From a phage, in assembly GCA_033193195.1 (NCBI GenBank), contig GCA_033193195.1_4326.1: DNA of 45,624 nucleotides; one strand, given 5' to 3'. The position numbers were made by a program, and so were the translations under genes. Position 1 is the stretch's first letter, and each line of letters starts with the position of its first letter. The notes under the pieces are model-generated. The model saw only the letters and a program-made list of their open reading frames with translations. It did no database searches and was not told the DNA's origin. Below are positions 25-45,624 of the stretch, in pieces.

Positions 25-696
25 ATGGTTGTTTGGTCTTTATTTGATGGTTCAGGGCTGGCTGTGAAAGATTGGGCTGAGGCTGGTCACTAGTGCTACT
101 GTTTCAACTTTGATGAGTCTGACCACGGTAGTTACGGGGATTTAAATGCAAAATTTGAACATGAGAACATCACCTACGTTAATGCCTGGATAGATGGCAA
201 CTTCGACTTTGATGTGAAGCCTGATATCATTTTAGCGTTCCCGCCGTGTACGGATTTAGCCGTGAGCGGGTCAAGGCACTTTGAGCGAAAGCGACTGGTT
301 AACCATAACTTCCAGATTGAAGCTGCGGATACATGTAAAGTTGCTTTTAACTTGGCTAATAAGTACGAAGTCCCATACATGATTGAGAATCCAATCAGCG
401 TACTGTCATCACTCTGGAGAAAGCCTAATAAGACTTTCCACCCATATGAATACGGAGGCTATTTGCCGGAAGATGATTTACACCCGTTTTTTAGCGACCT
501 AATAAAGCCAAGAGACGCATATCCTAAGAAGACATGCATTTGGTATGGCAATGGGTTTAAATGGCCAGAGGCGATTCCTGTGGACGTTAACGATGGATTC
601 TCTGACCAATACAAGAAGCTTGGTGGGAAGAGTAAGAAGACAAAGGTAATTCGCAGTCTAACTCCTCGCGGTTTTGCAAAAGCAGTCTTCATAGCA

Positions 697-714
<18 letters not shown>
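25..714 (+). pseudogene. DNA (cytosine-5) methyltransferase-like gene interrupted by in-frame TAG at 91..93
   Basis: ATG 25 preceded by GAGAGG; N-term MVVWSLFDGSG (motif I-like), then TAG at codon 23, same frame continues to AFPPCTDLAVSG (PC motif IV-like) and MIENP (ENV-like); track ORF 214..714 is the downstream part. Confidence 0.5.
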
Positions 715-1012
<298 letters not shown>

Positions 1013-1013
<1 letters not shown>

Positions 1014-5348: not shown

Positions 5349-5395
5349 ATCACATAGCTCCGCATTTGTTTTGACCATTTGTGCCATTCTACACT

Positions 5396-5427: not shown

Positions 5428-6003
5428 TTAAGCGATATCTTCTGAGTAACTCCCAGCACTAAATACAGAGCCGCCAACACTTCGATAACCGTATGGCAAA
5501 CATATTGGGTATCCAGCAGCTACAGTGTTAACAGCCGACCCGAATGCGTATGAAGCCCTGTTTTGCGCAGACTCCTGCGTCTTTAATCCAGTTGCTTGTG
5601 GGGAAAGTAACTGAGCTACACCGCCAGCAGCTAGTGAGATACCAGCACCAAGAACAGCGGTTGCAATACCACCAGTAAGGAAGAAGCTAGCACCAATGAG
5701 CGCCGCACCTATTACTGTCTGGAATAACCCTCCGCTTTTTCTTCCTTGAGGTATTGGCATAATACGAATCTCACCAACTACCTTAAAATCCTTGATACGA
5801 TGTTCATTAAGGTTCTTCCCGTCAGCAAATATTGCGAACCTAGTCCTTTGTCCAGCATGGCTTTGCATGAACTCTTTAAATGCTGGAATGTTTACCGATA
5901 ATGCTCGAAGTGCTTCCGGTACAGACTCCACGCACAACTCATGGACTTTCCCGTACCTTCTGCCAAGTGACAAGCCCAGCTTAACCTTAATCAGTCTCTG
6001 CAT
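5428..6003 (-). CDS. tail assembly protein (lambda I-like)
   Basis: position after K-like gene; hydrophobic Gly/Ala-rich C-terminal half. Confidence 0.5.
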   Translation of the reverse strand: MQRLIKVKLGLSLGRRYGKVHELCVESVPEALRALSVNIPAFKEFMQSHAGQRTRFAIFADGKNLNEHRIKDFKVVGEIRIMPIPQGRKSGGLFQTVIGAALIGASFFLTGGIATAVLGAGISLAAGGVAQLLSPQATGLKTQESAQNRASYAFGSAVNTVAAGYPICLPYGYRSVGGSVFSAGSYSEDIA

Positions 6004-11614: not shown

Positions 11615-11863
11615 TTACTTTGATTCGTTTTTTACAATGTTGTGAGCAACTTCGGTGCACACCTCGCGACCATAATGCAGAATCTGATTTGTCTTATCGC
11701 CAGCTACTTTTTCACAATGAGAATATGCACTATTAAATTCATGTTCATACTTTATTGCATCAGAGTTTGCGGTTTCGCCACCAGTTGGGTTAACAATCTG
11801 AATTGCCAGGTAGAAAGCACCAAGAGCAGCAGCAAGTTTGATGATGTTTTTAACGTTGTTCAT
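11615..11863 (-). CDS. small secreted or membrane protein (moron-like insert)
   Basis: N-terminal hydrophobic signal-like segment; own family promoter upstream. Confidence 0.5.
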   Translation of the reverse strand: MNNVKNIIKLAAALGAFYLAIQIVNPTGGETANSDAIKYEHEFNSAYSHCEKVAGDKTNQILHYGREVCTEVAHNIVKNESK

Positions 11864-11896
11864 TTCACTAATATCTCATTTCGTTTCGATGAATGA

Positions 11897-11941
11897 ACTA
11901 TACAGCAATCCGCGATTTGGTCTTTAACAAAAAGTGCTATC
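11897..11941 (-). promoter_or_regulatory. family promoter for 11615..11863
   Basis: minus-strand GATAGCACTTTTTGTTAAAGAC, TATAGT -10, CATCGAAACGAAA leader. Confidence 0.55.
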
Positions 11942-14614: not shown

Positions 14615-15562
14615 TTACTCAGTAAAGGTAATGCCTTTGATTACTGCGAAAGTTAGAGGCCTATAAATAACCAAGCCTGTGGACTTGGAAGTTACAGGGA
14701 ATCGGAAGTGCAAGTCGCGCGGCTGAGCAGGTAACACGTTAGTCGCTTCTGGAATCTCAATACTAGCATTTAATGCGTTCTTCTCAAATGCCAGTGCAGC
14801 TTTTCCATTTGCGCCATCGTAGTTATCCAGGACCTGCATGTAGCGCAAGGTGATACCTGGGTTATTGCGAGTAAATAACTCACCATAGCTTAAGGTTGTA
14901 TTATCAACCAGTCGCTGCATGTAGCGGCGAGCAGATGCTGGCAACAGAATGTCAGTTACATGGTGCAATCCTTGAGTACTGTTCTCAACCGCGTCAATCA
15001 TTGCGGTAATGTCGTTAACTGCGTTTTGCGGAACGCTCCAATTATGGGTTGCAACTACGTTGTTAATATTCGGATGGTTAAAAACACTTACGATTCCGTG
15101 CGGAGAAGAGCCGGACCATACCAGTTTATCGAGCAGGTTGTCGTGAGCCTCGAAAGCCAGAGCCTGTTTACGAGCAGACAATGGCTGACCAGTATCTGCG
15201 CCAACTTTAATCTCATCAACTGAGATCATAAACGCGTTACCAAAGCGGAATACTTTACCCTGCTTCTCTGTCATGAGCGCATCAACCAACGGCAGGTCGT
15301 CAGAGTAATCAGAGATAATCTGAGCAATACCAACACCATCAAACTCTGGATACTCGAAGTACTTCGCGTGACCAGGGATTTCATTGGTTACAGGAAAGAT
15401 ATTAACAACTGAGTTATCTGAGTATTCTTGTTCGTAAGCGCGATTCAGTGATGCGGTTAACTGCTTAACGGTCCAGATACCAGCAGCATCAGCCTTATCT
15501 ACACCCATTTGCTCAAGGTGAGCGGTGATTTTTGCTTGTTCTGCATCAAATTTAATGGCCAT
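14615..15562 (-). CDS. major capsid protein
   Basis: 315 aa, position after scaffold and decoration-like genes, strong terminator downstream. Confidence 0.7.
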   Translation of the reverse strand: MAIKFDAEQAKITAHLEQMGVDKADAAGIWTVKQLTASLNRAYEQEYSDNSVVNIFPVTNEIPGHAKYFEYPEFDGVGIAQIISDYSDDLPLVDALMTEKQGKVFRFGNAFMISVDEIKVGADTGQPLSARKQALAFEAHDNLLDKLVWSGSSPHGIVSVFNHPNINNVVATHNWSVPQNAVNDITAMIDAVENSTQGLHHVTDILLPASARRYMQRLVDNTTLSYGELFTRNNPGITLRYMQVLDNYDGANGKAALAFEKNALNASIEIPEATNVLPAQPRDLHFRFPVTSKSTGLVIYRPLTFAVIKGITFTE

Positions 15563-18104: not shown

Positions 18105-19365
18105 TGATTGTTACCTCTGTCTCAATTGAACCGTCACCAATCTTAACCTCAGGGGCTAATGCGCGCAAGGTATCTCGTGCTTCGTCTGCATCCATCACGC
18201 CGTTAGTGATAAGAGCAGTAATTGAATCAACGTTATTCTTCAGTGTTTCAGCGCGGTCTTTCTTCGATTCCTGAGCTAGAGGGTTAAACTCAACTGACCA
18301 TTCTTGCTCGGTTGTGATGAACGGGATTAAGAACCCAAGAACTGGAAGTAGCTCTTCGTTACGCTTGCGGTCAATCAACTTATGGAATGTCTCTAGCGCT
18401 GTGTTTTGGCTAGATGATAACCCGCCAACGTTACGACCCTTGAGAATGATTTCATGGATACCGCTCAGAGCAACAATTCTGTCGAACTTCTTATCGAGGA
18501 ATCCATCAATCCCACCAATATCCGAGTTAAGAACGCTGTACTCTTCAGCTTCAGCGTCGATACCAATCGCGCGACCAACGCCAGAGTTATCATCAACCTG
18601 GGCAAGCCTCAACCTGGCCGCACCAAAACCTTCCGCGTCGTCACACAGTTCAGCAAGGCCTTTAGCCTTCCACACCGCCTGCTGCTTGCGGCGCAATAAC
18701 TGAGTTGCCAGTTTCTCACACGTCTGATAATCCTTGATTGATTCAAGCAGGTCAGGAACCAGAACGCTAGCACCCCACCCGTCATTACCGCGACGCAATG
18801 AACTAGGAATCTTCTCGCCATCCATAATGTGAACTCGCGAGTAGTGCACATCATAAAACATGGCGCCACCTTCTGGCGTGATGCGGTACGTTAATGGCTT
18901 ACCGAATCGCACATTGCGAGGGTTTTCCTCCTTAGTCTGAACTCTTACCTGGCTACGCTCATAAACGCGAAGTGATTCAAGTTCCGCGCCTTCACGTACC
19001 GGGCTGGTTAGCGCACGATTGTCCTTAACGATAGCCACAATTGCAGAGCCGCCAAATAACCTCGCCCATGACCATGCGTCAGAGATTGACTCGTTAACCT
19101 TCAGGTAATCCCACCTGGACCAGAATTCACCTTCGTCATCAATACCATCGATATGGAAACCTGCGGCGATTGCTGTCTCCGGTATGGTGTCGACGATGCG
19201 GCGTACAATTGAGTTTGATGCGTACAGTGAATCAGCGAAAGGAGGTGTAAGATACGTGTTGCCAAAGTGCCCGTAAATCTCGCTACCATCACTGGGGCCA
19301 CCAAGAAATTGCGTGGCGTATGAATCTGCTTTTACCATTTTATTTGCTCCAATAAAAAGCCCCAT
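18061..19365 (-). CDS. portal protein
   Basis: 434 aa, downstream of terminase large subunit in packaging module. Confidence 0.7.
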   Translation of the reverse strand: MGLFIGANKMVKADSYATQFLGGPSDGSEIYGHFGNTYLTPPFADSLYASNSIVRRIVDTIPETAIAAGFHIDGIDDEGEFWSRWDYLKVNESISDAWSWARLFGGSAIVAIVKDNRALTSPVREGAELESLRVYERSQVRVQTKEENPRNVRFGKPLTYRITPEGGAMFYDVHYSRVHIMDGEKIPSSLRRGNDGWGASVLVPDLLESIKDYQTCEKLATQLLRRKQQAVWKAKGLAELCDDAEGFGAARLRLAQVDDNSGVGRAIGIDAEAEEYSVLNSDIGGIDGFLDKKFDRIVALSGIHEIILKGRNVGGLSSSQNTALETFHKLIDRKRNEELLPVLGFLIPFITTEQEWSVEFNPLAQESKKDRAETLKNNVDSITALITNGVMDADEARDTLRALAPEVKIGDGSIETEVTINETSEDPLEVPADN

Positions 19366-19396: not shown

Positions 19397-19750
19397 TTAC
19401 TCGAATTTTACTTCGAAATTGATTGATGATGTTTTCACTCCATTAAGTGTTAACTGGCGAACCTCCCTTCTGACTTCATAAAATGCCTCTTTAGTTACTA
19501 TGTTTTTGTTGATGAAGTATTTAATCCCAGCCTTTTCAACTTTAAAATTATCACCTTTAACGACAAAATCGGTAGGCTCTATAACTTCGAAATCATAAAC
19601 ACTAAGATTAATTACGCCAAAATAGCCTTTATCATCCTTAACTTTGACGTATTCATTATTACTTCCAGACGTTCTTGATAAGTCATAAATCTTACCAACG
19701 GTAAACTCAAAATAACCATCTTTTTTATACCCTTTAAATACTGCTTTCAT
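19397..19750 (-). CDS. hypothetical protein
   Basis: 117 aa with own family promoter upstream. Confidence 0.5.
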   Translation of the reverse strand: MKAVFKGYKKDGYFEFTVGKIYDLSRTSGSNNEYVKVKDDKGYFGVINLSVYDFEVIEPTDFVVKGDNFKVEKAGIKYFINKNIVTKEAFYEVRREVRQLTLNGVKTSSINFEVKFE

Positions 19751-19779
19751 TTTTTTACTCCTCTCGTTTGCGTGAAGTA

Positions 19780-19825
19780 ACTATAATCCATCCTTGGCGG
19801 AGTGTCTTTAGCAAAACGTGCTATT
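19780..19825 (-). promoter_or_regulatory. family promoter for 19397..19750
   Basis: minus-strand AATAGCACGTTTTGCTAAAGAC, TATAGT -10 22 nt downstream. Confidence 0.55.
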
Positions 19826-21509: not shown

Positions 21510-22034
21510 TTACAGCTTACTAATCACAGACTCCAGAGCTTCCTTCATCGTTTCGACGTCGTTAGCAGAAGAGTTATTGCTTATAGTGATCTCCTGCGGT
21601 TTGTCGATTCCAAGCTCCTTGGAAATCATGCCGGGGTTAACAATGCCAGACGCTGCCAGCTGATACTTCTGCTCTCGAATCACGGAATCAATGAATGTCA
21701 TCACATCGTCATAACCCGCAGACTTCCTCCATTTCTCAATGGCACTTGAAGTAACGCCGCAGTAAAGGCAGAACCCTGTTAACGTGAATACTCGTGGCTT
21801 ATGCACAAGGCTCTCAGTGACCACGCCCTGGAAGCTGGCCGTCTCAGCCGCTTTGATTGCATTATCCTCTGCCCATGAGAAGTATTTCACAGCCAAGTCG
21901 AATAACTGTTCTGGGGTCATGATTCTGTTTTTGGCTAGAGTTGTAATGTCGGAATATTTCTTGTTGTACATAGCCTTGAAGTTGCCAGAGCGAATCTTTT
22001 CTTGCGCATGGCTGGTGAAGTTTTCGTCTTTCAT
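21510..22034 (-). CDS. terminase small subunit
   Basis: 174 aa immediately upstream of large subunit. Confidence 0.6.
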   Translation of the reverse strand: MKDENFTSHAQEKIRSGNFKAMYNKKYSDITTLAKNRIMTPEQLFDLAVKYFSWAEDNAIKAAETASFQGVVTESLVHKPRVFTLTGFCLYCGVTSSAIEKWRKSAGYDDVMTFIDSVIREQKYQLAASGIVNPGMISKELGIDKPQEITISNNSSANDVETMKEALESVISKL

Positions 22035-23453: not shown

Positions 23454-23482
23454 TTTCTAACCTCTTGCTGTTTGATATATAA

Positions 23483-23528
23483 ATTATATGGCATCCATGC
23501 CTTTGGTGTTTAGCTATTCGTGCTGTTT
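23483..23528 (-). promoter_or_regulatory. family promoter for 23217..23453
   Basis: minus-strand AACAGCACGAATAGCTAAACAC, palindrome GGCATGGATGCC in spacer, TATAAT -10. Confidence 0.55.
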
Positions 23529-23975: not shown

Positions 23976-24398
23976 TCAGATTTTGTTAATTTGCTCAAAC
24001 TTCTCAAACCAGAAAACAACTGGATCCTCCACTATGGAGATGAGGCCGAACCGCTCTGCCGTGCGAAAATTCATGCTGCTCTTACGCCCGCGAGCGACTT
24101 GAAGAGACACCTGTTCCCTGAACATTTCAAGGGAATAGCAAGCTTTCATGAGGTTGCATGGAGCACATGCAGGGTAAAGGTTTTCCATTCGATCAGCTTG
24201 TGGTCGATTAAACTCACCTGTCGCCTTCAGCTTGAAAGTTCCTTTCTCCGCTGCCTTCATGCATACCTCAGATTTACGTAGCACCGGTTCAACATGGTCA
24301 GCATGCCAGCCTTTCTCAGGTAGTTCACACCCACAATAAGCGCAGCGACCACCGAACTTGCCCTTCAACTCTTCCCTTTGAGATTTGCTTAATTTCAT
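23976..24398 (-). CDS. HNH endonuclease
   Basis: CAYCGC..WHADHVEPV..N..CAPCN zinc/HNH motif pattern. Confidence 0.75.
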   Translation of the reverse strand: MKLSKSQREELKGKFGGRCAYCGCELPEKGWHADHVEPVLRKSEVCMKAAEKGTFKLKATGEFNRPQADRMENLYPACAPCNLMKACYSLEMFREQVSLQVARGRKSSMNFRTAERFGLISIVEDPVVFWFEKFEQINKI

Positions 24399-24588: not shown

Positions 24589-24620
24589 CGTCAATTCCTC
24601 ATCTCGTTTTGATGGGATAA

Positions 24621-24664
24621 GTATAACAACCTATCCCAATTCATGTTTAGCAAAAAGTGCTATT
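24621..24664 (-). promoter_or_regulatory. family promoter for 24409..24588
   Basis: minus-strand AATAGCACTTTTTGCTAAACAT, TTATAC -10-like. Confidence 0.5.
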
Positions 24665-25886: not shown

Positions 25887-25932
25887 AATAGCACTTTTTG
25901 CTAAAGACATTTAGGTATTGCGGAGTTATAGT
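25887..25932 (+). promoter_or_regulatory. family promoter for rightward early unit
   Basis: AATAGCACTTTTTGCTAAAGAC, TATAGT 25927..25932. Confidence 0.55.
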
Positions 25933-25959
25933 TCGCTCCTCAACAACGAGGAGGGATAT

Positions 25960-26154
25960 GTGAAGGTAAAAATAATAGCGCTAAGTAAGACAGATGGGTT
26001 TGACGATGACGAATACGAATTCTACGGCCTTGAACCTGGAGGTGTTTACGAGGTAGTGGCAATATACGAAGAACTTGAATCAATGGTGATAAAGAACAAG
26101 AATGGTAAACACGTAATGGTATACAACCACGAGGTAGAGTACTGTGAAGATTAA
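25960..26154 (+). CDS. small hypothetical protein (paralog of 26329 gene)
   Basis: GTG 25960 after GAGGAGGG; track ATG 25918 lies upstream of predicted -10. Confidence 0.45.
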   Translation: MKVKIIALSKTDGFDDDEYEFYGLEPGGVYEVVAIYEELESMVIKNKNGKHVMVYNHEVEYCED

Positions 26155-26328
26155 TAGAGAGGAGTTAAAACACGAATGCGACCTGATTGGATTGAACGAA
26201 GATTATACAGACATGGTGTTGCGCGGACGCATCGATATCGACCTTGCTAAGCAACTCCAGTAAGATGATGAGCATATGTGCTGTGATGGCCTTTGATGCG
26301 ACGACTGCATACCATTTTAAGGAATGAG

Positions 26329-26505
26329 ATGATGAAAATTAAGATTGTTAAGTTTGATACTATTTAAACACCAGAATATTACGGCATTGAGATTGGTGGT
26401 GTTTACGATGTATTCATGGAACACGAAAATGGAACTGTTGTAATAATGGATGGTAAAGCCAAGCCATTAGTTATCCACCCTGGAGAGTTTGAGGTAGTAA
26501 AATGA
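26329..26505 (+). pseudogene. small paralogous gene with in-frame TAA at 26365..26367
   Basis: MMKIKIVKFDTI-stop-TPEYYGIEIGGVYDV.. parallels KVKII..EFYGLEPGGVYEV of upstream gene; AAGGAA SD. Confidence 0.45.
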
Positions 26506-26705
26506 AACTATTATGCACTAACATAATTAAAGACTTTAACGATGCCTTCAATAAGGGTTCTGAATACAACGCTACCGAGTTTAAAAATAATATGCGCCTT
26601 GTTACCGGCGAACGTCCACACAAGCATCACAACACGTTCCATGCGCTTAAATGCCTTGATTACGTAATCATCCACGGCATCGCAACTTTCAAGGTGATTG
26701 AATAA
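26502..26705 (+). CDS. hypothetical protein
   Basis: 67 aa, ATGA overlap with upstream gene. Confidence 0.5.
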   Translation: MKLLCTNIIKDFNDAFNKGSEYNATEFKNNMRLVTGERPHKHHNTFHALKCLDYVIIHGIATFKVIE

Positions 26706-26869
26706 TGCTTTTACCATCTGAGATAAACTATTTCGATCTGGAAGTCATAAGTGCTTACAGCGGAAAGGGTTGGCCTTGCGGGGACTGGTTTAACGAGGAC
26801 CTGCTTGAGTCTCACGAGATTATGTTGAAGGCAATTGAGAAGGCCAGAAAAAATAGCACTAATTGCTAA
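26705..26869 (+). CDS. small hypothetical protein ending inside promoter element (..KNSTNC)
   Basis: TAATG overlap start; stop TAA is part of AATAGCACTAATTGCTAA. Confidence 0.4.
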   Translation: MLLPSEINYFDLEVISAYSGKGWPCGDWFNEDLLESHEIMLKAIEKARKNSTNC

Positions 26870-26896
26870 AACTCACCGCCACTGATGGCGTATATT
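26852..26896 (+). promoter_or_regulatory. family promoter
   Basis: AATAGCACTAATTGCTAAAAC, TATATT 26891..26896, leader CATCGAAACGAAAGAGAG. Confidence 0.55.
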
Positions 26897-26928
26897 TACT
26901 CCATCGAAACGAAAGAGAGCAAGAGATC

Positions 26929-27090
26929 ATGTTCGACAACTTTTATGACGAGATGGAAGAGGCGGTTCTCAGGGCGTCGCTAGATGGTAAGATTTACGGT
27001 TTAGTTCAGAAGTTTGATAAGATTGTTGTGCGTATTGTGCGCAAATCAGTACCAAACAAATTCATGTTGACAACTAAGAGATTAAAATAA
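26929..27090 (+). CDS. small hypothetical protein
   Basis: ATG 26929 downstream of predicted start site; track start 26863 lies inside the promoter. Confidence 0.45.
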   Translation: MFDNFYDEMEEAVLRASLDGKIYGLVQKFDKIVVRIVRKSVPNKFMLTTKRLK

Positions 27091-27479
27091 TGACTACTAC
27101 GATAACCAAAAATTTCATTAGCAACGACAACAAGCTATTTAAAGCTCGCGTTAAAAAGATTCACCAGTGGGTTAACGGTGTCGCTGAGGAAGTTGAATTT
27201 GAGCAAATCAAAAAAGACGGCAAATGGATCAACCTGGAAGAACGTGGAAAATACATTAAAACCAAAACTCTTTACTGCACAAAGGTTAACCATAAGTCTG
27301 GCGTTAAGAAAGACTTCAAAGAAGGTAAGCGATACCAGGTCAACATGCATAGCGGACTTGGTCAGTCAGCTGGATACATTTACGATGAAGATGGCAACGC
27401 CTGGCAGCTATATCGCAGCGAATATGTTGGCTTTTATACGTTGTGTGAAACTTACCACTTTGAGGCTCAATACAAATGA
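27090..27479 (+). CDS. hypothetical protein
   Basis: 129 aa ORF. Confidence 0.5.
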   Translation: MTTTITKNFISNDNKLFKARVKKIHQWVNGVAEEVEFEQIKKDGKWINLEERGKYIKTKTLYCTKVNHKSGVKKDFKEGKRYQVNMHSGLGQSAGYIYDEDGNAWQLYRSEYVGFYTLCETYHFEAQYK

Positions 27480-27646
27480 AATTATACATTGTAAGTGGTT
27501 GCACACACTATGATGGAAGCGAAGTGATTGCCGCTTTCGATGAAGAATTCAAAGCACAGGAGTTTAAATATAACAAAGAAATATCTTCAGAAAATCACTT
27601 TGACTACTACAAGATAGATTGCATCTTACTAAATAGCACTAATTGA
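27476..27646 (+). CDS. small hypothetical protein ending inside promoter element (..LNSTN)
   Basis: ATGA overlap start; 56 aa; stop TGA within AATAGCACTAATTGA. Confidence 0.35.
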   Translation: MKLYIVSGCTHYDGSEVIAAFDEEFKAQEFKYNKEISSENHFDYYKIDCILLNSTN

Positions 27647-27676
27647 TAATGCATTATAAGCGGCTATTGATATAAT
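27632..27676 (+). promoter_or_regulatory. family promoter for 27706 gene
   Basis: AATAGCACTAATTGATAATG, TATAAT 27671..27676. Confidence 0.55.
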
Positions 27677-27705
27677 GGCCGCTCAGAACAACACGGAGAG
27701 AAGTA

Positions 27706-29289
27706 ATGTTTGATTTCAACGAAGATAAACTATCTGTTGAGCAGGTTATGGCAATCGCTGCCAATGAAAACCTACCACCGCTTCGCGTGGCTATTAATGC
27801 CAATGGCTATCGACATTCTCAATCGTTCTGGAAAGCACCTGTCGAGATTGATACAGGTAATGATAAGTATCCAGTAATCTCACTCGGTAATGATATTGAT
27901 GTTGTTGGTAAGCTATCGGCTAATATCGCTCGCTCGGTTCAGTTCCCTGAGTCGTCAGCTTACATGCACTTTCTTGGTTGTGTTTCTGCTGCAATGCTTG
28001 GGCGTTTTACTGTCGAGTATCATGGAACCCAACAGCCAACATCTTTGTACGTGGTAACAAGTCAGCCGCCTTCAACTGGTAAATCAGCCATTAACTCGCT
28101 ATCAATTGCGCCGATGATTGCTGAGACTGAGCGGTTGAATAAAGTACGTAAACGTGATCGAAAAAAGATTATTGCTAAACTGTCCGCTCTGGCTAAAGAG
28201 ATGAAGCAGGAGAAATCACCTTCTGAAATGGCTTCACTTTTTGAGGAGAAGGAGGATTTAGAGGAGAAGCTCGAGAAGCTATGCGATATAGTATTCCCTG
28301 TCTCCGATACTACTCCGGAAGGTCTTGCGCGAATCAACAATCGCCAGGGTAATTTTGCGGTAATCTCTGATGAGGCTACTAGCGTCAACTCACTGTTAGG
28401 CATGACTTACGGTGATGGCTCGAAGAAAACGAACAGCGAGCTCGTGCTGAAAGCATGGGATGCAGGTAATGTGTCAATTGCCCGTGCGAACGCAGAAAAT
28501 AACATGAGCTTTGTGGCTATGGGATGCATCTCCGTAATTGCTCAGGATGAAACAATCAATGCCATTATGAATGCTGGTGCGCGTGGTATTGGTGTATCTG
28601 AGCGTTTCCTTCTGGTGCGTGAAAAATCATTTCTTGGCGAACGTGTATTTGTTGATGAAAATGGTGATTCAACCTATGAGGCTATTGATGACGGCCTGAA
28701 AGCAGACTATTTCCGTCTTGTTCATGAGATTATGAATGAAGTTGAAGTGAAACTTACTGTAAGCGCGTCATCAATGCGTTACCTTAACCGCGCTCGTCAA
28801 GAGATGGAGCCTCATCTTGGTGATGGTGGCAAGTATTCTCACACAATGTTGCGCGGTGCTCTTGGTAAGTTTGATAAGCAAGCAATCCGCATCGCTTCTG
28901 TTCTGCACGTAATTCGTAACTGGTTCTCACCAGCCGGATCCAGCCCTCAAAAGTCAAGAGAGATTGAACTGGATACAATGCAGGAAGCGGTTATGATTTT
29001 CAACGAACTAAGCAAGACTTATTTATCATCCGCTAGTGCTGCTGGTCATGCTGGTGACAATGCCGAGATGAACAAGCTGGTTGATATCCTGATTAAGCAG
29101 GGCAAGAATGGTAAAGGTGTTGTTGGTGTTCGCTCGTTGTATGAGGCTGCACGCAAGGTTAAACCTTTTGAAGCTCAGGCTGGAATTATGACTCGCATTA
29201 AGGACCACTTGATTCCTATGCTTGATGAGAAAAACTACACATGCCTGATTGGTGATAAAATTTACATTAATCCACTATTGCTGGGGTAA
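27706..29289 (+). CDS. P-loop NTPase, possibly replication-associated
   Basis: QPPSTGKS Walker A-like motif, 527 aa. Confidence 0.5.
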   Translation: MFDFNEDKLSVEQVMAIAANENLPPLRVAINANGYRHSQSFWKAPVEIDTGNDKYPVISLGNDIDVVGKLSANIARSVQFPESSAYMHFLGCVSAAMLGRFTVEYHGTQQPTSLYVVTSQPPSTGKSAINSLSIAPMIAETERLNKVRKRDRKKIIAKLSALAKEMKQEKSPSEMASLFEEKEDLEEKLEKLCDIVFPVSDTTPEGLARINNRQGNFAVISDEATSVNSLLGMTYGDGSKKTNSELVLKAWDAGNVSIARANAENNMSFVAMGCISVIAQDETINAIMNAGARGIGVSERFLLVREKSFLGERVFVDENGDSTYEAIDDGLKADYFRLVHEIMNEVEVKLTVSASSMRYLNRARQEMEPHLGDGGKYSHTMLRGALGKFDKQAIRIASVLHVIRNWFSPAGSSPQKSREIELDTMQEAVMIFNELSKTYLSSASAAGHAGDNAEMNKLVDILIKQGKNGKGVVGVRSLYEAARKVKPFEAQAGIMTRIKDHLIPMLDEKNYTCLIGDKIYINPLLLG

Positions 29290-29292
29290 TTT

Positions 29293-29628
29293 ATGTACCT
29301 GCTCGACCTGTATAATTTCTGCGAAGGATACAAGAACTTCAACCGCCAGCACCTGGCAAGATTCATCTATAAGCACAAGGATTGCGCAAGGATGGCCAAG
29401 GCTGCCGGGGTTGATGAAAGGTATTTTGCCTCAAGTTGCTCGAAGGAGTTTATGGCGAGAATGCTTACGGCTGGGTATCTTGATGGAGTTAATGGAGTGT
29501 ACTGGTGTAAGGGTTCAATTAAGCGACCATTTCAGTTTGAATTCATGAGCCTTGAAGGTAGGTCCAGTGATTACGTCAGTGAGATGATGAACATAGCCAA
29601 CATGAGTGATGACGAATTGTTTGCATAA
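29293..29628 (+). CDS. hypothetical protein
   Basis: 111 aa ORF. Confidence 0.5.
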   Translation: MYLLDLYNFCEGYKNFNRQHLARFIYKHKDCARMAKAAGVDERYFASSCSKEFMARMLTAGYLDGVNGVYWCKGSIKRPFQFEFMSLEGRSSDYVSEMMNIANMSDDELFA

Positions 29629-31024: not shown

Positions 31025-31055
31025 TTTTGAATCCTCTGTTGTTTTCGATGTAGTA

Positions 31056-31100
31056 ATTATGCCGGATTACTCCGGCGATTGTTTAGCAATTCGTGCTATT
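31056..31100 (-). promoter_or_regulatory. family promoter overlapping 3' end of dNMP kinase gene
   Basis: minus-strand AATAGCACGAATTGCTAAACAA, CATAAT, leader CATCGAAAACAAC. Confidence 0.5.
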
Positions 31101-32112: not shown

Positions 32113-32167
32113 TACAACTCCCCATCTCGTTATCGTTTATTCATTTGGCCTCAATCCTTTGAGGCTT

Positions 32168-32187
32168 TATTAACAAAAAGTGCTATT
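32168..32187 (-). promoter_or_regulatory. family upstream element (no clear -10)
   Basis: minus-strand AATAGCACTTTTTGTTAATAA then hairpin GCCTCAAAGGATTGAGGC. Confidence 0.4.
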
Positions 32188-34245: not shown

Positions 34246-34440
34246 TTATACCTCATCAAATTTTTCGCCGAATTCGTTTTTAACAGTTTCCAGATCATAT
34301 TTGTAAGTTGGGCTAACTTCGAATGCATATGTGCAGTCTTCAATGTCAACCAAAACATAACCATCTTCAGTTACTTGCATCTCGTAGATGTAGCCAGTCT
34401 TGCGTGATTCGTAGAATTTACCAGTATAGATAGTAGCCAT
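34246..34440 (-). CDS. hypothetical protein
   Basis: 64 aa; family promoter and leader directly upstream. Confidence 0.45.
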   Translation of the reverse strand: MATIYTGKFYESRKTGYIYEMQVTEDGYVLVDIEDCTYAFEVSPTYKYDLETVKNEFGEKFDEV

Positions 34441-34478
34441 TTTCTTTCTCTCTTTGTGTGTTTCGTTTCGATGAGTTG

Positions 34479-34525
34479 ATAATACACCAACTCACCAATT
34501 CGTCTTTAGCAATTCGTGCTATTTT
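34479..34525 (-). promoter_or_regulatory. family promoter for 34246..34440
   Basis: minus-strand AATAGCACGAATTGCTAAAGAC, TATTAT, CATCGAAACGAAACACAC. Confidence 0.6.
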
Positions 34526-34939: not shown

Positions 34940-36649
34940 TTAATCCTCCATCGTGAATGATTTGTTGGCGATAATGTCTTGAGACTTCTGGTTTTTACGG
35001 TGTGTGATTCTCAATGGGGCACGGAATAGATGTGCATTTGTCATAATCATTCTAGCATTACGCAATCTGCCAATTCTGAATGCCTCAGTCCTGTTATCGA
35101 TGTGTGTTAAGCAGAAAGCCTTCCATTTAACAGAGCAAACGCGATGGTCTGATTCAGGGAAGAATGTTTCATAAGCTCGGAACTTATCTCCACTATGAGC
35201 CATTACCTCATATGAAGCAACGATCCCTGACTGGTTCTTTGTTAACCCAATCTTGAAGTCATAAACTCGCAACCAGTCCCCCTTACGATACATTTTTCCT
35301 GATAACTTAGCATTCGGGTCTATGAGCATCTCACCACAGCATCTGCAATTCTTAGCTGCAATATCATTCTTCTCACCGCATCCTTTCTTAATGATAGCTT
35401 TGGTCTGTGGGTCCACTATATCTTCACACAGTCTAAACTGAAAGAAGTGCTCACAGCGCTTCCCGTCAATTACGTTATTGCAGCGCCTGGCTAATGGAGA
35501 GTTCACATAAGAGCATGCCTGACAGATTCTTGGCTCACCAACACGCTTTCTTGCTGACCTAAATTTCTGGTCTTGTACCTCTTCTATAATTGGGTCGAAG
35601 TAAAGTTCAGCCATATCATCAAGCGTTCCAGCAAAATCAAGAACAACATGGTCATCTTTTACCATTCCAGCTTCTTTGTGCTTCTTCTTAAGGATACGCA
35701 TACCACGACCAAGCAACTGAATGAGTAGAGTAATGCTACCAACCTTCCTCAGGATAATGCTTGTATCCCACGGGGGGCAGTTTACGCCAGTTGTGAGGCA
35801 ACCAATCTGAAATATGAACTTATATTCTCCGTTGGCTGCCTTCTCAAGTATCTCTCTACGCTTATTCTCACCAGTGGAGTTGGTAACTATCGCCCAAGTA
35901 ACACCTTCTGGAAGTGCGGCTGCCGCCTCCTCGCAATGCTGTTTGCTAGCGCAAGTTACCAATGCAGCATTCCTTGTTTCCATAAACCTAGCAGCAAATC
36001 CCATTATCTTTTGTGTCATCGTTTGGTTTTCGTGAATCTTTGCAGCCATCGCATCCATTTCTTTCTTGCTGAAGTCCTTAACCCCATCACTTCCATCAGG
36101 AGTGAACTCACTAAGGTCGTAGCCCAAATCACCAACTTCACCGTAGACAGTAGGAACAACGAACCCCAAGTCAACAAGGTAGCTGGTTGGCACTTGCATT
36201 ACAGTTTTGCGCCAGAATCCACGGACATTTGGGTTACTAACTACAATGTGGTCGTTGTTACGGTACGGGCTACCAGTTAACCCAAAGATACGAAGTTCGC
36301 GACCGTACTTCTCCTTGCATCGACGCTTCATTTCGGTAATGATTAACGTGTATTGCGCGCGACCAGTGCCAAGAAGCCCGGTATTCACACCATCCTTAAA
36401 GACCATCTCACCCTTCTTCGTGCTCATCTGCTCGAATGTTTCCTCATTCTCTTCAGCTTCTACGATATCCATATGGTCCACCATGTGGCAATTATGTGCC
36501 ACGACCCCGTCAGCAATGAAATTATGGTGCTCAGGCATCTCTATATCCCAAACAAGTTCCTTGCCAATGGGTGAGATGTCTTTAATTTTGCTTGATTTTG
36601 TATTCCACGCCATTTTACATGTGCTTACTAATTCTCTTAAAAAACTCAT
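34940..36649 (-). CDS. SF2 helicase C-terminal fragment preceded by intein C-terminal splicing segment
   Basis: N-term ..ELVWDIEMPEHHNFIADGVVAHN then CHMVDH; helicase motifs LTGSP and QLLGRGMR; C-terminal Cys-rich zinc-finger-like region; ATG 36649 with GAGG upstream. Confidence 0.75.
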   Translation of the reverse strand: MSFLRELVSTCKMAWNTKSSKIKDISPIGKELVWDIEMPEHHNFIADGVVAHNCHMVDHMDIVEAEENEETFEQMSTKKGEMVFKDGVNTGLLGTGRAQYTLIITEMKRRCKEKYGRELRIFGLTGSPYRNNDHIVVSNPNVRGFWRKTVMQVPTSYLVDLGFVVPTVYGEVGDLGYDLSEFTPDGSDGVKDFSKKEMDAMAAKIHENQTMTQKIMGFAARFMETRNAALVTCASKQHCEEAAAALPEGVTWAIVTNSTGENKRREILEKAANGEYKFIFQIGCLTTGVNCPPWDTSIILRKVGSITLLIQLLGRGMRILKKKHKEAGMVKDDHVVLDFAGTLDDMAELYFDPIIEEVQDQKFRSARKRVGEPRICQACSYVNSPLARRCNNVIDGKRCEHFFQFRLCEDIVDPQTKAIIKKGCGEKNDIAAKNCRCCGEMLIDPNAKLSGKMYRKGDWLRVYDFKIGLTKNQSGIVASYEVMAHSGDKFRAYETFFPESDHRVCSVKWKAFCLTHIDNRTEAFRIGRLRNARMIMTNAHLFRAPLRITHRKNQKSQDIIANKSFTMED

Positions 36650-37629
36650 CTTGTGCCGACCTCGTTGTTATTGATACTGAGTAAAGCTCTCTCTTTTTCT
36701 TGCCGCAAATATAGCTTATAACCTTAACTCCGTCATTAGCAATAAATGCTATTAGCGCATCAACTACTGATTGAACTTCACGCCTGCTAAATGATTCGGT
36801 GTGGATTTCTACAACCCTCCCCCCTGAGCTTACAGTGCAATGACCATCATCACCAAAGTAAGCAGCCCAACCAACTGGATCAAGCTCTCTGCATATCTTT
36901 CCAATATCGTAACCATCCTTAGAATTTCCGTACTTATCAGCATATGAATCCAGAACTTTCGTACATGATGTTGATACGCAAAACCAGTTGTCGCCAAATC
37001 CAGGGTTTTTCTTCTCCCTGTATCTAGGGTTTAGTTTTGCAAACCTTTCAACCTTGCTTAGTGCGTGCTCCTTATTTCCATATTCCAAGATAGCCTATGC
37101 GTTCCTTTTTCTGTATTTTTAATCAAGCAACCATCACCAGCCATTGCCGCAAGAATGTTTTGATGTAAAAAGTCATCAACCTCCATTTATGGGTTGACGG
37201 TTGAATTATGATGCCCCGTTCTGTAATCCAAATAGAAATCGAAAGGGTTCTTAAGAAGTACGCCTAACCCCTTGCTTGAATGCGGCATAACTTTTTCACC
37301 ACAGCCACACTTGCACGCAGAAGCTTTTTCGTAAATTTGTCCTGCGAGCCGTCTAGCGACAGATTCATCCCAATACGAAGTTTTCCCGCTTCTACCCAGC
37401 AGCCGTTCGAATAAAGTTTGTGTGTACTCGTGCATTTTATTTCCTCTCCGCTTTCTAATTTAATTGATAATACATGTCTTACACCATTAGTAAAAACTCT
37501 TTTTGGCTTATGATAGAAGTAATCACCAGTGCTTTCGTTTATGCATTTTATTTTATGATTGATAAGGTCTTCGCTATCAATCCTCATCATCCCTGAATCG
37601 GTGGTTATCATCGTGTCTCCAGTTAAGCA
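36491..37629 (-). other. intein inserted in helicase DECH motif; LAGLIDADG endonuclease core disrupted
   Basis: blocks CLTGDTMITT and CTSTHKL..W in N-extein frame; ILAAMAGDGC and WAAYFGDDGHC in two other frames; in-frame TAA 37187..37189; length 1139 bp is not a multiple of 3. Confidence 0.7.
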
Positions 37630-38073
37630 CTCATCTATCGCGATAACAGCAGGAGCATAGTCACCAAGCCCCTTAAACAAGCCGTTAGCAGCCGTTCCCT
37701 CACTAGCCACTATGGTTGGATAGTAAACTGATTTAACGTTAAGGCCAGCGCAATAGACGCTATTACGGATGCCGAAATTACGAAGTTCCTCTGCGTTCTG
37801 GCTGATAATCTCTGACTGGCGAGATAGGACCATGTAAGGAAGGCCAAGCTGTTCCATTCGTTTCCCAATCATGGCGAGTATAATTGTCTTACCAGCAGAC
37901 ACCGACAGGTCTGCGATGAATGGCGCTTCGTACTTGCCAATAGCCTTACCGATTGCGTCAAATGTCACGCACTGGAATTCGTAAGGCGTTATGTCTCCAA
38001 ACTGGTAATCTTTCTGAATCTGTTTAATTTTCTCTTTATCAAAGTTCGCCACTAAGCGCTCTACTGGAAGCAT
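37264..38073 (-). CDS. SF2 helicase N-terminal fragment fused to intein N-terminal splicing segment
   Basis: Walker A SVSAGKT, ..VIAIDE then CLTGDTMITT; stops 121 codons into intein. Confidence 0.75.
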   Translation of the reverse strand: MLPVERLVANFDKEKIKQIQKDYQFGDITPYEFQCVTFDAIGKAIGKYEAPFIADLSVSAGKTIILAMIGKRMEQLGLPYMVLSRQSEIISQNAEELRNFGIRNSVYCAGLNVKSVYYPTIVASEGTAANGLFKGLGDYAPAVIAIDECLTGDTMITTDSGMMRIDSEDLINHKIKCINESTGDYFYHKPKRVFTNGVRHVLSIKLESGEEIKCTSTHKLYSNGCWVEAGKLRIGMNLSLDGSQDKFTKKLLRASVAVVKKLCRIQARG

Positions 38074-38112
38074 TTTAAATATCCCTACAGTTTGTTAGTT
38101 CGTTGCATTGCT

Positions 38113-38158
38113 GTATAATAACAATTATCGAACCTATTGTTTAACAAAAAATGCTATT
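38113..38158 (-). promoter_or_regulatory. family promoter for helicase N-fragment gene
   Basis: minus-strand AATAGCATTTTTTGTTAAACAAT, TTATAC/TATTAT -10-like. Confidence 0.5.
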
Positions 38159-38169
38159 GAGGTAATGAG

Positions 38170-38643
38170 ATGTGTGAAATTGACAAGCGAACTATCAACG
38201 GCAATAACGGAACCATCCGCACGCAAGACAAGAAACAGCGCAAACGACCGTCAGGCTACTACGTATTGAAAGATGAAGTAAAGGCTGGGCTACGAGCTCG
38301 TCTGGAGATGGTTCTTGATTTCTACGGCACGAAGGCCAATATCGCCAAGCAGTTAAATGTATCTCACCAGACTGTAGAGCAATGGTTTGATCGCGGGATG
38401 ATTTCGGCTAGAGGTGCCCAGAGGGCTCACAATGCATACAAGCGAAATAAGGAAGGCTTTAGAGCTACGTTCTGCCGACCAGACCTGCAATTCGACGGAA
38501 ACGGTAAGCCATTAACGCTTAGATGCAAGAAACGCCATATGCTGCGGGTTGTTACCGAAGCTGAACTAGCAACAAAGCCACCATGTCGACCATGGCGCAA
38601 GAATAAGATTGCCAACGAAGCAGCACGAAAAGCTAAAGATTAA
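38170..38643 (+). CDS. HTH DNA-binding protein, candidate transcription regulator
   Basis: GTKANIAKQLNVSHQTVEQWFDRG helix-turn-helix-like segment; GAGGTAA SD. Confidence 0.55.
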   Translation: MCEIDKRTINGNNGTIRTQDKKQRKRPSGYYVLKDEVKAGLRARLEMVLDFYGTKANIAKQLNVSHQTVEQWFDRGMISARGAQRAHNAYKRNKEGFRATFCRPDLQFDGNGKPLTLRCKKRHMLRVVTEAELATKPPCRPWRKNKIANEAARKAKD

Positions 38644-38649
38644 ATAATT

Positions 38650-38680
38650 GGATGTGCCATAATCGGTACATCCTTTTTTA
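38650..38680 (+). terminator. rho-independent terminator
   Basis: GGATGTGCC-ATAATC-GGTACATCC then T6. Confidence 0.6.
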
Positions 38681-38694
38681 TTGGGGAGAAGAAA

Positions 38695-39174
38695 ATGAAC
38701 TGGCATGATTATTTTTACTATGTAGATGGCAAATTGCATTGAAAGATTAGCACTGCAAGACGTGTTAAGGTTGGCGATGAGTGCAACTCACTATCTACAT
38801 CTGGCTATTACAAAGTGTCTGTTAATGGCTTTAGGACTTATGTACATAGAGTTGTGTGGGAGATGTTTAATGGAGAACTTCAAAATGGCGACTACATTGA
38901 TCATATAAACCATAACAAATTAGATAACAGAATAGAAAACCTAAGAGTAACAACAAATCAAGGTAACTCAAGAAATTGCAAGCTTAGCGTTTTATCAACA
39001 ACTGGTTATTGTGGAGTGGCAAAGCTAAATCACGGAAAATTTAAGGCTTACATCAAGGTTGACGGCAAGCAGCTACACCTTGGTAACTTCGATACTCCAG
39101 AGCAGGCGTATAAAGTAAGAATTGAAGCAGAGAGAAAATACAACTTTCACGAAAATCACGGTTTAAGCAAATGA
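38695..39174 (+). pseudogene. HNH-AP2 homing endonuclease-like gene with in-frame TGA at 38740..38742
   Basis: MNWHDYFYYVDGKLH-stop-KISTARRVKVGD (Trp expected in G.L.WK motif); HRVVWEMFNGEL..DHINHNKLDNRIENLR HNH; YCGVAKLNHGKFKAYIKVDGKQLHLGNF AP2-like; GGGAGA SD. Confidence 0.65.
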
Positions 39175-40116: not shown

Positions 40117-40137
40117 TGCCTGAAAGATGGTAGAATG

Positions 40138-40160
40138 AATTTTAGCAATTCGTGCTATTT
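40138..40160. promoter_or_regulatory. orphan copy of family element in opposite orientation to the downstream gene
   Basis: TTTAGCAATTCGTGCTATTTT with no consensus -10 in either direction. Confidence 0.4.
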
Positions 40161-43867: not shown

Positions 43868-43897
43868 TCCCCATCTCTCTTTCGTTTCGATGGGGTA

Positions 43898-43944
43898 ATG
43901 ATACCCCACCTGTTAATTTTGTCTTTAGCAATTAGTGCTATTTT
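43898..43944 (-). promoter_or_regulatory. family promoter for annealase/SSB unit
   Basis: minus-strand AATAGCACTAATTGCTAAAGAC, TATCAT, CATCGAAACGAAAGAGAG. Confidence 0.6.
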
Positions 43945-45107: not shown

Positions 45108-45572
45108 TTCTCTATCTCTCTATTTTTGCGTGCTTTCGATTAGTTAATGATGCCGCACGCAAGACACACAGTCCAATTGGTATCACCGATTAATTAATCA
45201 AGTATACGCGTATAAATCCGTAACTACGTGTAGACATTGCCATTAGTTACGTTTTTCACCACTTCAGCCCAGCTATAGCTCAATGTAAATAGTGCGTATA
45301 CCGTGTATACCGATTTTTGCGGAGGGTGCATAGGTATATGCGCCACGCAATACTGTATAAAATCACATTATATAAAAATTATAACCGGAACACTCCAGAA
45401 CAGTAGTTACATGATATACACAGTAATATATATAATAATAATAATAAGAGTAAATGGTTGATATATATAGATATTATTATGTAACTATGGCGTATCAAAG
45501 CGTAACTAGGCGTATACGATTTCCCGCTGATGCATATGGTATACATAGAGTTACATCGGTTACGCGTAACCA
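45108..45572. promoter_or_regulatory. control region B: AT-rich noncoding divergent-promoter region paralogous to region A
   Basis: same conserved blocks as 25380..25650; palindrome GGTTACGCGTAACC at 45558..45571. Confidence 0.6.
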
Positions 45573-45615
45573 ACAGCACGAATAGCTAAAACTAATCCGC
45601 AAAACCATGTATAGT
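45573..45615 (+). promoter_or_regulatory. family promoter at window end, oriented toward window start
   Basis: AACAGCACGAATAGCTAAAAC, TATAGT 45610..45615. Confidence 0.5.
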
Positions 45616-45624
45616 TGGTCACAC

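Follow-up and report, generated by a model that had tools for sequence, protein, structure and literature searches.

Repeated promoters in a T1-like phage genome resemble class II marbox promoters of the host

A short element that recurs throughout the genome of a T1-like phage is probably a near-perfect marbox, the site of the host activators MarA, SoxS and Rob, and its repeats would then be class II marbox promoters. The element, AATAGCACnnnTTGCTAAA, has 16 sites with at most two mismatches and one weaker site in the window, as we call the whole stretch of 45,624 nucleotides that was analysed. The repeat itself has already been published; the marbox reading is what we propose here.

The repeated element and its promoter context

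The window covers nearly the complete genome of a virulent T1-like coliphage of the Drexlerviridae (Braunvirinae), and it shares about 93% identity with Escherichia phages AN_ECEAS and ES. Its genes lie in blocks alternating between both strands and comprise virion genes, lysis genes, a replication and recombination set (two helicases, a primase, Erf, a RecE-like nuclease and SSB) and many small ORFs; Pfam scans of 40 window proteins revealed no immunity repressor or integrase. Few coliphages and Klebsiella phages are as common as the T1-like ones, which are also notorious laboratory contaminants and candidates for phage therapy. Their genomes have almost no standard promoters, and the repeat has stayed unexplained since the genome papers of T1 and TLS. 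A generic sigma-70 promoter scan of the window gave 45 matches, not enriched over the shuffle mean of 44.9.

We searched the window with the motif AATAGCACNNNTTGCTAAA, allowing up to two mismatches and taking as coordinate the first motif base on its own strand.

Plus strand, at most two mismatches: 697+, 25887+, 26852+, 27632+, 45572+
Minus strand, at most two mismatches: 11941-, 19825-, 23527-, 24664-, 31100-, 32187-, 34523-, 36753-, 38158-, 40159-, 43942-
Plus strand, weaker 17th site: 38619+

The original prediction had named about 15 near-identical copies, and all 15 of its positions hold the element; the site at 36753- is additional to them. With up to four mismatches, 23 matches were observed in the window against a mean of 7.5 in dinucleotide shuffles. 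The element had been said to point towards the downstream gene, as 14 of the 16 sites do, with 70–104 nt from motif start to start codon; the remaining two are 45572+, whose downstream region is cut off by the window end, and 40159-, which is oriented against the following gene. A TATAnT-like hexamer, expected about 22 nt past TTGCTA, was found 22–23 nt away in 15 of the 17 sites, which places it 17–19 nt past the end of the 20-bp element. Among 55 sites from the window phage, AN_ECEAS and T1, the gap between the element and the -10 is 18 nt in 39, 19 nt in 8 and 17 nt in 3. The candidate promoters of the window, with scores in bits from the ChIP-derived matrix introduced below and the genes that they would drive, are as follows.

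34460..34522, minus strand: candidate marbox promoter at the centre of the finding; marbox ATAGCACGAATTGCTAAAGA at 34503-34522, -10 TATTAT at 34479-34484, 16.9 bits; predicted +1 A at 34472, leader ATCGAAACGAAAC, ATG at 34440
698..760, plus strand: candidate marbox promoter; ATAGCACGAATAGATAAAGA at 698-717, -10 TATGAT at 736-741, leader ATCGAAACGAAAC; lipoprotein gene 783..1013
11878..11940, minus strand: candidate marbox promoter directly past the terminator of the major tail gene; -10 TATAGT at 11897-11902; 11615..11863 and tail genes
19761..19824, minus strand: candidate marbox promoter; ATAGCACGTTTTGCTAAAGA, identical at 16 of 20 positions to the E. coli mar marbox; -10 TATAGT, gap 19 nt; 19397..19750 and the portal gene
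23464..23526, minus strand: candidate marbox promoter; ACAGCACGAATAGCTAAACA, a perfect match to the 20-bp consensus; -10 TATAAT
24601..24663, minus strand: candidate marbox promoter; ATAGCACTTTTTGCTAAACA, a perfect consensus match; -10 TATACT inside the inverted repeat TGGGATA/TATCCCA
25888..25951, plus strand: candidate marbox promoter, the first of the rightward block 25918..29628; -10 TATAGT, gap 19 nt
26853..26915, plus strand: candidate marbox promoter; ATAGCACTAATTGCTAAAAC, 17.3 bits, the top score of the window; -10 TATATT
27633..27695, plus strand: candidate marbox promoter with a degenerate 3' half (TTGATAAT); -10 TATAAT between AGCGGC and GCCGCT; DUF3987 gene 27706..29289
31037..31099, minus strand: candidate marbox promoter, a perfect consensus match; -10 CATAAT; DUF7244, holin, endolysin and spanin genes
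32124..32186, minus strand: candidate marbox upstream of the polynucleotide kinase/phosphatase gene; poor -10, CCAAAT; spacer containing the hairpin GCCTCAAaggaTTGAGGC
36689..36752, minus strand: candidate marbox promoter, a GCAT variant within the insert that splits the helicase; C-terminal helicase ORF 34940..36649
38096..38157, minus strand: candidate marbox promoter; 37264..38073; on the opposite strand the site covers about +11..+32 of the Cro-like gene promoter TTGTTA-16-TATAAT (38092-38119)
38170..38643, plus strand: gene of a conserved Cro-like protein with a single HTH, the rival candidate binder
38620..38682, plus strand: weak 17th member; GCAGCACGAAAAGCTAAAGA, 14.1 bits; CATAAT 18 nt downstream, in the loop of the terminator hairpin 38650-38673; upstream of HNH and primase genes
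40139..40158, minus strand: reversed candidate marbox without a -10 of its own, at about +2..+21 of the extended -10 promoter TGGTAGAAT (40128-40136), which serves the tail-fibre gene (ATG at 40180); repressor geometry
43879..43941, minus strand: candidate marbox promoter, 17.3 bits; -10 TATCAT between GGGGTA and TACCCC; Erf recombinase gene
45573..45615, plus strand: candidate marbox promoter cut by the window end; -10 TATAGT at 45610-45615

The information profile of 35 distinct sites is conserved at -51..-33, at G-14, in the -10 hexamer, at CA (-1/+1) and over +1..+12, and is essentially flat at -32..-15 except for G-14. Conservation extends over the first 12 transcribed bases (ATCGAAACGAAA), after which comes an A-rich, U-poor leader; a mini-hairpin formed by the leader UCGAAACGA was ruled out, as the pairing is lost in variants. 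Of 49 sites, 29% have the -10 between the arms of a perfect inverted repeat of at least 6 bp and of variable sequence, against 4% in a control in which arms from different sites were paired (maximum 13% in 200 permutations). The inverted repeat at 38650-38673 is a true terminator; the others are not followed by a T-run.

TTGCTA had been judged too far from the -10 for a standard -35, and the distance of 22–23 nt is indeed too great, but the description of the element as an upstream one stands only in part, since it overlaps the core promoter. The -35 position itself is taken by the element's 3' end (TAAAgac), and no -35 hexamer exists; a long-spaced promoter with TTGCTA as its -35 was rejected on account of both the distance and the occupation of -35 by TAAAnn. 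Besides lacking a -35 hexamer, the promoters carry a conserved activator-type site, as had been proposed. Reading of the promoters by host RNA polymerase, the other part of that proposal, agrees with their sigma-70-type sequence (a conserved -10, G-14 and a fixed distance to the start codon) and also with the window having no gene for a phage RNA polymerase or sigma factor; the TLS genome likewise has neither (PMC11447400). Promoters of a single-subunit phage RNA polymerase (T3-like CTAAAG) were rejected: no polymerase gene is present, the genes lie on both strands and a sigma-70 -10 stands 18 nt downstream. A sigma-54 promoter has the form TGGCAC-N5-TTGC, with GG and GC doublets exactly 10 bp apart and no sigma-70 -10. 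It too was rejected, as the element reads TAGCAC-N3-TTGC (AG for GG and a spacer 2 bp shorter) and a conserved TATAnT follows.

The upstream site had further been described as UP-like, and here the sequence disagrees. The UP consensus is an A/T-rich tract at about -40 to -60 without G/C-specific positions; the element has no A/T tract, spans -51..-33 and carries invariant G, C, A and C at -47..-44 as well as G-38. A factor-independent upstream element, read by RNA polymerase itself through alpha-CTD and/or sigma region 4 and offsetting the missing -35, is for us very unlikely. The invariant core GCAC and TTG is not A/T-rich, we know of no RNA polymerase determinant that reads GCAC at -47..-44, and the element also works as a unit in reverse inside other promoters. 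The fixed register to the -10 and the A-rich 3' end (TAAA) at -36..-33 would suit direct reading, as would the basal activity that the promoters may have without an activator, given G-14 and a good -10. The UP-element idea was also raised by the authors of the TLS re-annotation (PMC11447400).

Correspondence with the host marbox

We compared the window with published consensus strings, which are independent of the phage sequences. The 20-bp marbox consensus is AYNGCACNNWNNRYYAAAYN (PMC2064960), and other forms are GCAHWWWWTGYYAAA (PMC6900184) and the 15-bp gcannwwntgnnaaa (PMC12052159). At up to one mismatch, the 20-bp form had 14 matches in the window against 1.2 expected from shuffling; 12 of the 14 were phage repeats, so that 12 of the 16 repeats fit the consensus at this threshold. 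The 15-bp form had 10 perfect matches, all of them phage repeats, against 0.8 expected. A weight matrix was derived from only 73 Salmonella MarA/SoxS/Rob/RamA ChIP-seq sites (PMC10268841), and its 12 best window positions were phage repeats, scoring 14.9–17.3 bits. The top repeats outscored 79–100% of the bound chromosomal sites, and 14 window positions reached the upper quartile of the ChIP sites, compared with 0.8 expected from shuffles. A single base separates several phage 15-mers from in vivo bound sites, as it does GCATTTTTTGTTAAA from GCATTTTTTGCTAAA of ypeC. The variation among the repeats sits at degenerate positions of the consensus, namely the nnW spacer (GAA, TTT, TAA or GTT) and the first Y of RYYAAA, which is C or T.

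The placement of the element corresponds as well. A class II marbox is a forward site overlapping the -35 (PMC6900184, PMC12052159), and class II promoters have no recognisable -35 (PMC10268841). With respect to both the -10 and the gene, 15 of the 17 phage sites are in forward orientation (GCAC distal, AAA proximal) and overlap the -35. The phage promoters combine the sequence features of the class: a consensus match, forward orientation, the distance to the -10, and a sigma-70-type -10 without a -35. The original prediction had called the promoters analogous in logic, not in sequence, to activator-dependent phage middle promoters. This was an understatement, since the sequence itself agrees with one particular known site, a host marbox placed as in class II promoters.

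The closest known counterpart is micF, which in E. coli K-12, read directly, has ACAGCACTGAATGTCAAAAC, 18 nt, TAGAAT and a start 8 nt past the hexamer. Like the phage promoters, micF and other class II promoters have an asymmetric 20-bp site with GCAC and YAAA 7 bp apart, in forward orientation and in place of the -35; at micF, too, 18 nt lead to a sigma-70 -10 and the site is centred at about -41 (PMC8811837, PMC9178005). In the cryo-EM structure with RNA polymerase, Rob contacts positions -47, -45, -38, -37, -35 and -34 of micF, prevents sigma region 4 from binding the -35 and makes contact with alpha-CTD (PMC9178005). The RamA complex on micF is arranged like that of Rob, with the site again centred at about -41 (PMC8811837). 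If the phage transcripts start 7 nt past the -10, the phage bases at the contacted positions are G-47, A-45, G-38, Y-37, A-35 and A-34. The phage differs from the micF class in that its sites are nearer the consensus than most chromosomal ones, with binding to them predicted, and are repeated 16–21 times in a virulent genome of 46–50 kb, each with the conserved leader ATCGAAACGAAA.

Two other known systems share part of this design. The marbox of E. coli marRAB, the DNA of the MarA crystal structure 1BL0, reads ATGCCACGTTTTGCTAAATC in reverse and is identical to the phage site at 19805-19824 at 16 of 20 positions, including the whole GTTTTGCTAAA stretch, but it lies in reverse orientation upstream of a -35 (class I). 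The middle promoters of T4 resemble those of the phage in having a good -10, no -35, a box containing TGCT and an activator that displaces sigma region 4, the last being proposed for the phage. The T4 MotA box, centred at -30 and separated from the -10 by 11–13 bp, depends on the phage proteins MotA and AsiA. In contrast, the phage box ends 18 nt from the -10 (its TGCTA ends 22–23 nt away), and no match to the MotA or AsiA families was found in Pfam scans of 40 window proteins.

On the model of the solved Rob, SoxS and RamA complexes on micF, each phage promoter would be a unit of four parts: an asymmetric 20-bp site, ATAGCAC-nnW-TTGYTAAA-nn, at about -50..-31; the lack of a -35 hexamer; G at -14 with a TATAnT -10; and a predicted start at the A of CATCGAAACGA (CATCG), 7 nt past the -10. 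A monomer of the host MarA/SoxS/Rob family, or RamA in Klebsiella, would place its two helix-turn-helix motifs on GCAC (-47..-44) and YAAA (-36..-33). Its contact with the DNA would substitute for that of sigma region 4 on the -35, and by touching alpha-CTD and sigma region 4 it would recruit the E. coli sigma-70 RNA polymerase. One host-dependent type of promoter would in this way drive most early, replication and lysis transcription units and some structural ones. From the sequences, we infer that host proteins would bind the sites and that transcription would depend on them. A search of literature that takes in few subscription journals found no binding, transcription-start or genetic data for T1-like phages and no link of a marbox or Rob to them, and the search returned nothing relevant on Drexlerviridae transcriptomes or start sites.

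Candidate binding proteins

The small, probably early genes bear the site at their promoters, which fits an activator present in the cell at infection. Several considerations weigh against the host proteins. The phage motif is far tighter than the host consensus, with ATA before GCAC and TT before G nearly invariant, and could reflect a different, more specific protein. Furthermore, MarA and SoxS are scarce without stress, making dependence on them a risk for a virulent phage. The same risk attaches to Rob, which is largely sequestered without inducers (PMC10268841). A MarA homologue encoded by the phage itself was not found: tblastn with MarA, SoxS and the Rob N-terminus (approximate query sequences) against the window, AN_ECEAS and T1 returned nothing below E = 0.1, and there was no AraC/HTH_18 protein among the 40 window proteins compared with Pfam.

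The 38170..38643 product, put forward earlier as one candidate binder, has 157 residues and one helix-turn-helix and is the only recognisable regulator of the phage. The element would then be the operator of this Cro-like protein (ST23 in T1, gp58 in TLS and Rtp52), bound by a dimer on TAGCA-N5-TGCTA near -42 that would activate the promoters, as lambda CI does at PRM, or shut them off, and would repress at the reversed sites. The element contains a 5+5 bp dyad, its arms separated by one helical turn, that could accommodate a helix-turn-helix dimer. The confident structural model (pLDDT 87) has its best matches in the dimeric all-alpha Cro proteins of Xfaso1, N15 and P22. The gene is a core gene of the family, 50–85% identical across T1, TLS, Rtp and KP36 and confined to T1-like contigs; its start codon is always adjoined by a site, at about +11..+32 of its own promoter, a position suggestive of autoregulation. 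Retention of the motif in a Drexlerviridae phage recorded on Vibrio (Vc1) also speaks for a phage-encoded binder and counts against the host proteins.

Other observations make us regard this operator as unlikely. The halves of the element are unequally conserved, the left arm having an invariant G that is matched by C or T at the symmetry-related position in about half of the sites, and a palindromic operator would need neither the strict orientation nor the fixed 18-nt register to the -10. The recognition-helix residues differ between phages with an identical DNA motif, and the site stands at the promoters of presumably the earliest genes, before any phage protein is made. An operator would also leave the position-by-position match to the marbox as a coincidence. 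With a single HTH facing an asymmetric, oriented element whose variation falls exactly at the degenerate marbox positions, the Cro-like product is a possible binder but the weaker candidate.

Relatives, reversed copies and a possible switch

The element is shared by relatives of the window phage, with 8–21 copies per genome in T1, TLS, Rtp, Klebsiella phage KP36 and Vibrio phage Vc1. At up to one mismatch, AYNGCACNNWNNRYYAAAYN had 21 matches in TLS (1.5 expected), 16 in Rtp (1.0) and 13 in KP36 (0.8); T1 had 21 and Vc1 had 9, with about 1 expected in each, and there were none in the lambda genome. Vc1, which keeps the motif, belongs to the Drexlerviridae and is recorded on Vibrio cholerae. The 2024 re-annotation of TLS by German, Kropinski, Misra and co-workers described a 21-nt direct repeat, aaATAGCACnnnTTGnTAAAA, in 21 copies (PMC11447400). 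The repeats are oriented with transcription about 76 nt before start codons and were noted, as unpublished observations, in T1, Rtp and Rogue1 too; stoperators, enhancer sites and UP-like elements were named as candidate functions (PMC11447400). The TLS repeats are the same element as in the window phage, with the same orientation rule and start-codon distance. The marbox, the fixed 18-nt gap to the -10, the reversed copies in late promoters and the leader are not mentioned in that paper.

Like the phage sites, the stoperators of mycobacteriophage L5 are short, asymmetric, present in many copies and oriented with transcription. They differ in being bound by a prophage repressor and in having no fixed distance to promoters, whereas the window phage is virulent and its sites are locked to the -10. 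It is highly improbable that the phage sites are stoperator-like roadblocks or, alternatively, a decoy array that would sequester the MarA, SoxS and Rob of the host and thereby blunt its stress response. Many copies in one orientation relative to transcription would agree with roadblocks, as the TLS authors noted for stoperators (PMC11447400), and 16–21 strong sites per genome, scoring as high as the best chromosomal sites or higher, would make an effective sponge upon phage replication. However, a virulent phage in which neither an immunity repressor nor an integrase was seen argues against these roles, and neither function needs an exact 18-nt gap to the -10 or a start-codon distance of about 75 nt.

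Under the marbox reading, the reversed copies would take on a role of their own. T1, AN_ECEAS and Rtp share the arrangement seen at 40139-40158 in the tail-fibre promoter. The major head gene of T1 and that of TLS are preceded by near-consensus promoters (TTGACG-16-TATTAT in T1 and TTGAAC-16-TATATT in TLS) whose spacer is a reversed copy, and the GTGCTAT end of the marbox provides the TG and the beginning of the -10. Repression by MarA at an overlapping site was reportedly described by Schneiders and Levy in 2006. More generally, MarA represses where its site overlaps the core promoter (PMC12052159), and a protein on the reversed phage sites would act as a repressor. The two orientations together suggest a switch, with one protein turning early promoters on and some late promoters off.

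A broader view, possible if doubtful, is that T1-like phages wire their whole transcription programme to MarA, SoxS and Rob. Forward marboxes would activate the early, replication and lysis promoters, and reversed ones, placed in otherwise strong late promoters (of the tail-fibre gene here and of the major head gene in T1 and TLS), would repress late structural genes, with titration or decay of the activator serving as a timer without a phage-encoded regulator. Replicating phage DNA, with 16–21 top-affinity sites per copy, would titrate the activator. MarA and SoxS are short-lived and might also decay after host shut-off. As the activator was lost, the early promoters would fade and the late promoters would open. 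Phage growth would then be tied to bile, antibiotics and oxidative stress in the gut. Levels of TolC, the receptor of TLS, are also raised by the MarA/SoxS/Rob regulators.

The best-supported identification of the repeats is a consensus class II marbox promoter, a known kind of promoter in what would be an unexpected place. If it is correct, the expression of these phages would depend on MarA, SoxS, Rob and RamA, the host drivers of multidrug resistance, and the question of function could be addressed with existing strains and proteins. The phages would also be a source of compact, very strong class II marbox promoters. Antibiotics, salicylate, bile and oxidative stress should then change phage yield, and clinical strains with mar- or ram-type resistance may be better, or different, hosts.

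Leader and -10 region of the marbox promoters

The promoters that follow the marbox, a 20-bp repeat read as a putative site for host MarA/SoxS/Rob, share their first ~12 transcribed bases, ATCGAAACGAAA (predicted +1 to +13), after which come an A-rich, U-poor leader and then a weak GAGAG/GAGG ribosome-binding site. No base pairing within the ATCGAAACGAAA leader was preserved among the leader variants. The conserved leader could act on promoter escape, start-site choice or translation. Immediately upstream, the -10 hexamer is flanked by an inverted repeat that lies in the spacer and discriminator and is variable in sequence, with arms such as TGAGTTG, TGGGATA, GGGGTA and AAGGCC. At 29% of 49 sites, the arms around the -10 pair perfectly over 6 bp or more, compared with 4% in controls made of mismatched-partner arms. 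As no T-run lies 3' of these repeats, they are not ordinary terminators.

Examples of leaders and -10-flanking repeats (window coordinates except the last line)
34460-34472 (-), conserved leader, +1 to +13
748-760 (+), conserved leader, +1 to +13
43879-43891 (-), conserved leader, +1 to +13
34473-34494 (-), inverted repeat, spacer/discriminator
24614-24636 (-), inverted repeat, spacer/discriminator
43892-43910 (-), inverted repeat, spacer/discriminator
Phage T1 sites 1450, 2269, 3535, 4344 and 4864, inverted repeats

Marboxes combined with other elements

In phages T1 and TLS, a reversed marbox supplies the spacer and TG of strong extended -10 promoters, which precede the major head gene in both phages and a tail chaperone gene in T1.

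Reversed marboxes in strong extended -10 promoters
T1, 15060-15095
T1, 18831-18860
TLS, 15015-15050

The head-gene leaders of T1 and TLS contain a small hairpin with a T-run behind it, an arrangement that, judged by its sequence, looks like an attenuator. Terminator and promoter elements also overlap, as read from the DNA, at window 38650-38682 (+), behind the Cro-like gene, which encodes a single-HTH protein: in the loop of its intrinsic terminator (GGATGTGCC-ATAATC-GGTACATCC, then TTTTTT) lies CATAAT, the -10 hexamer of a weak predicted marbox promoter that comes next. A further marbox-like sequence, ATGGCACAAATGGTCAAAAC (5369-5388, -; 14.7 bits with a matrix built from Salmonella ChIP-seq sites), lies where the large tail-tip (J-like) gene is annotated to begin, and it is kept in Rtp and in the close Escherichia phage relative AN_ECEAS; a -10 at 18 nt from it is absent.

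Window ends, split helicase gene and homing endonucleases

In the alignment with AN_ECEAS, window sites 697+ and 45572+ have a single counterpart, near 18475-18493, and two promoter copies therefore flank extra DNA here. This DNA spans the window ends (1-714 and 45572-45624) and includes a DNA methyltransferase-like ORF (214..714; phrog_757). The helicase gene at 34940-38073 (-), one ORF in T1 (ST22), is split: ST22 residues 3-150 align with 38070-37627 and residues 136-669, in another frame, with 36532-34943. The 1.1-kb insert contains a HINT/intein-like fragment, a LAGLIDADG remnant and a predicted marbox promoter (36733-36752), which could drive the second half of the gene. Several homing-endonuclease genes or remnants are present in the window, as is usual in T1-like phages.

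Homing-endonuclease genes or remnants
23976-24398 (-), HNH
38815-39174 (+), HNH
36615-37088 (-), LAGLIDADG, in the helicase insert

The motif in other phages

Two large, myovirus-sized phage records (132 and 152 kb), KP869112.1 (87828-87895) and OR062526.1 (144603-144662), each carry one whole promoter unit with 82-87% identity, which could reflect either the transfer of a gene cassette or an artefact of assembly. Within the Drexlerviridae, Vibrio phage Vc1, whose recorded host is Vibrio cholerae, retains eight motif copies (e.g., 5712-5730, -, and 22013-22031, +), including a reversed marbox before the major capsid gene. This points to one of three things: a marbox-type binder exists in the Vc1 host, the host record is questionable, or the motif is recognised by a factor of the phage.
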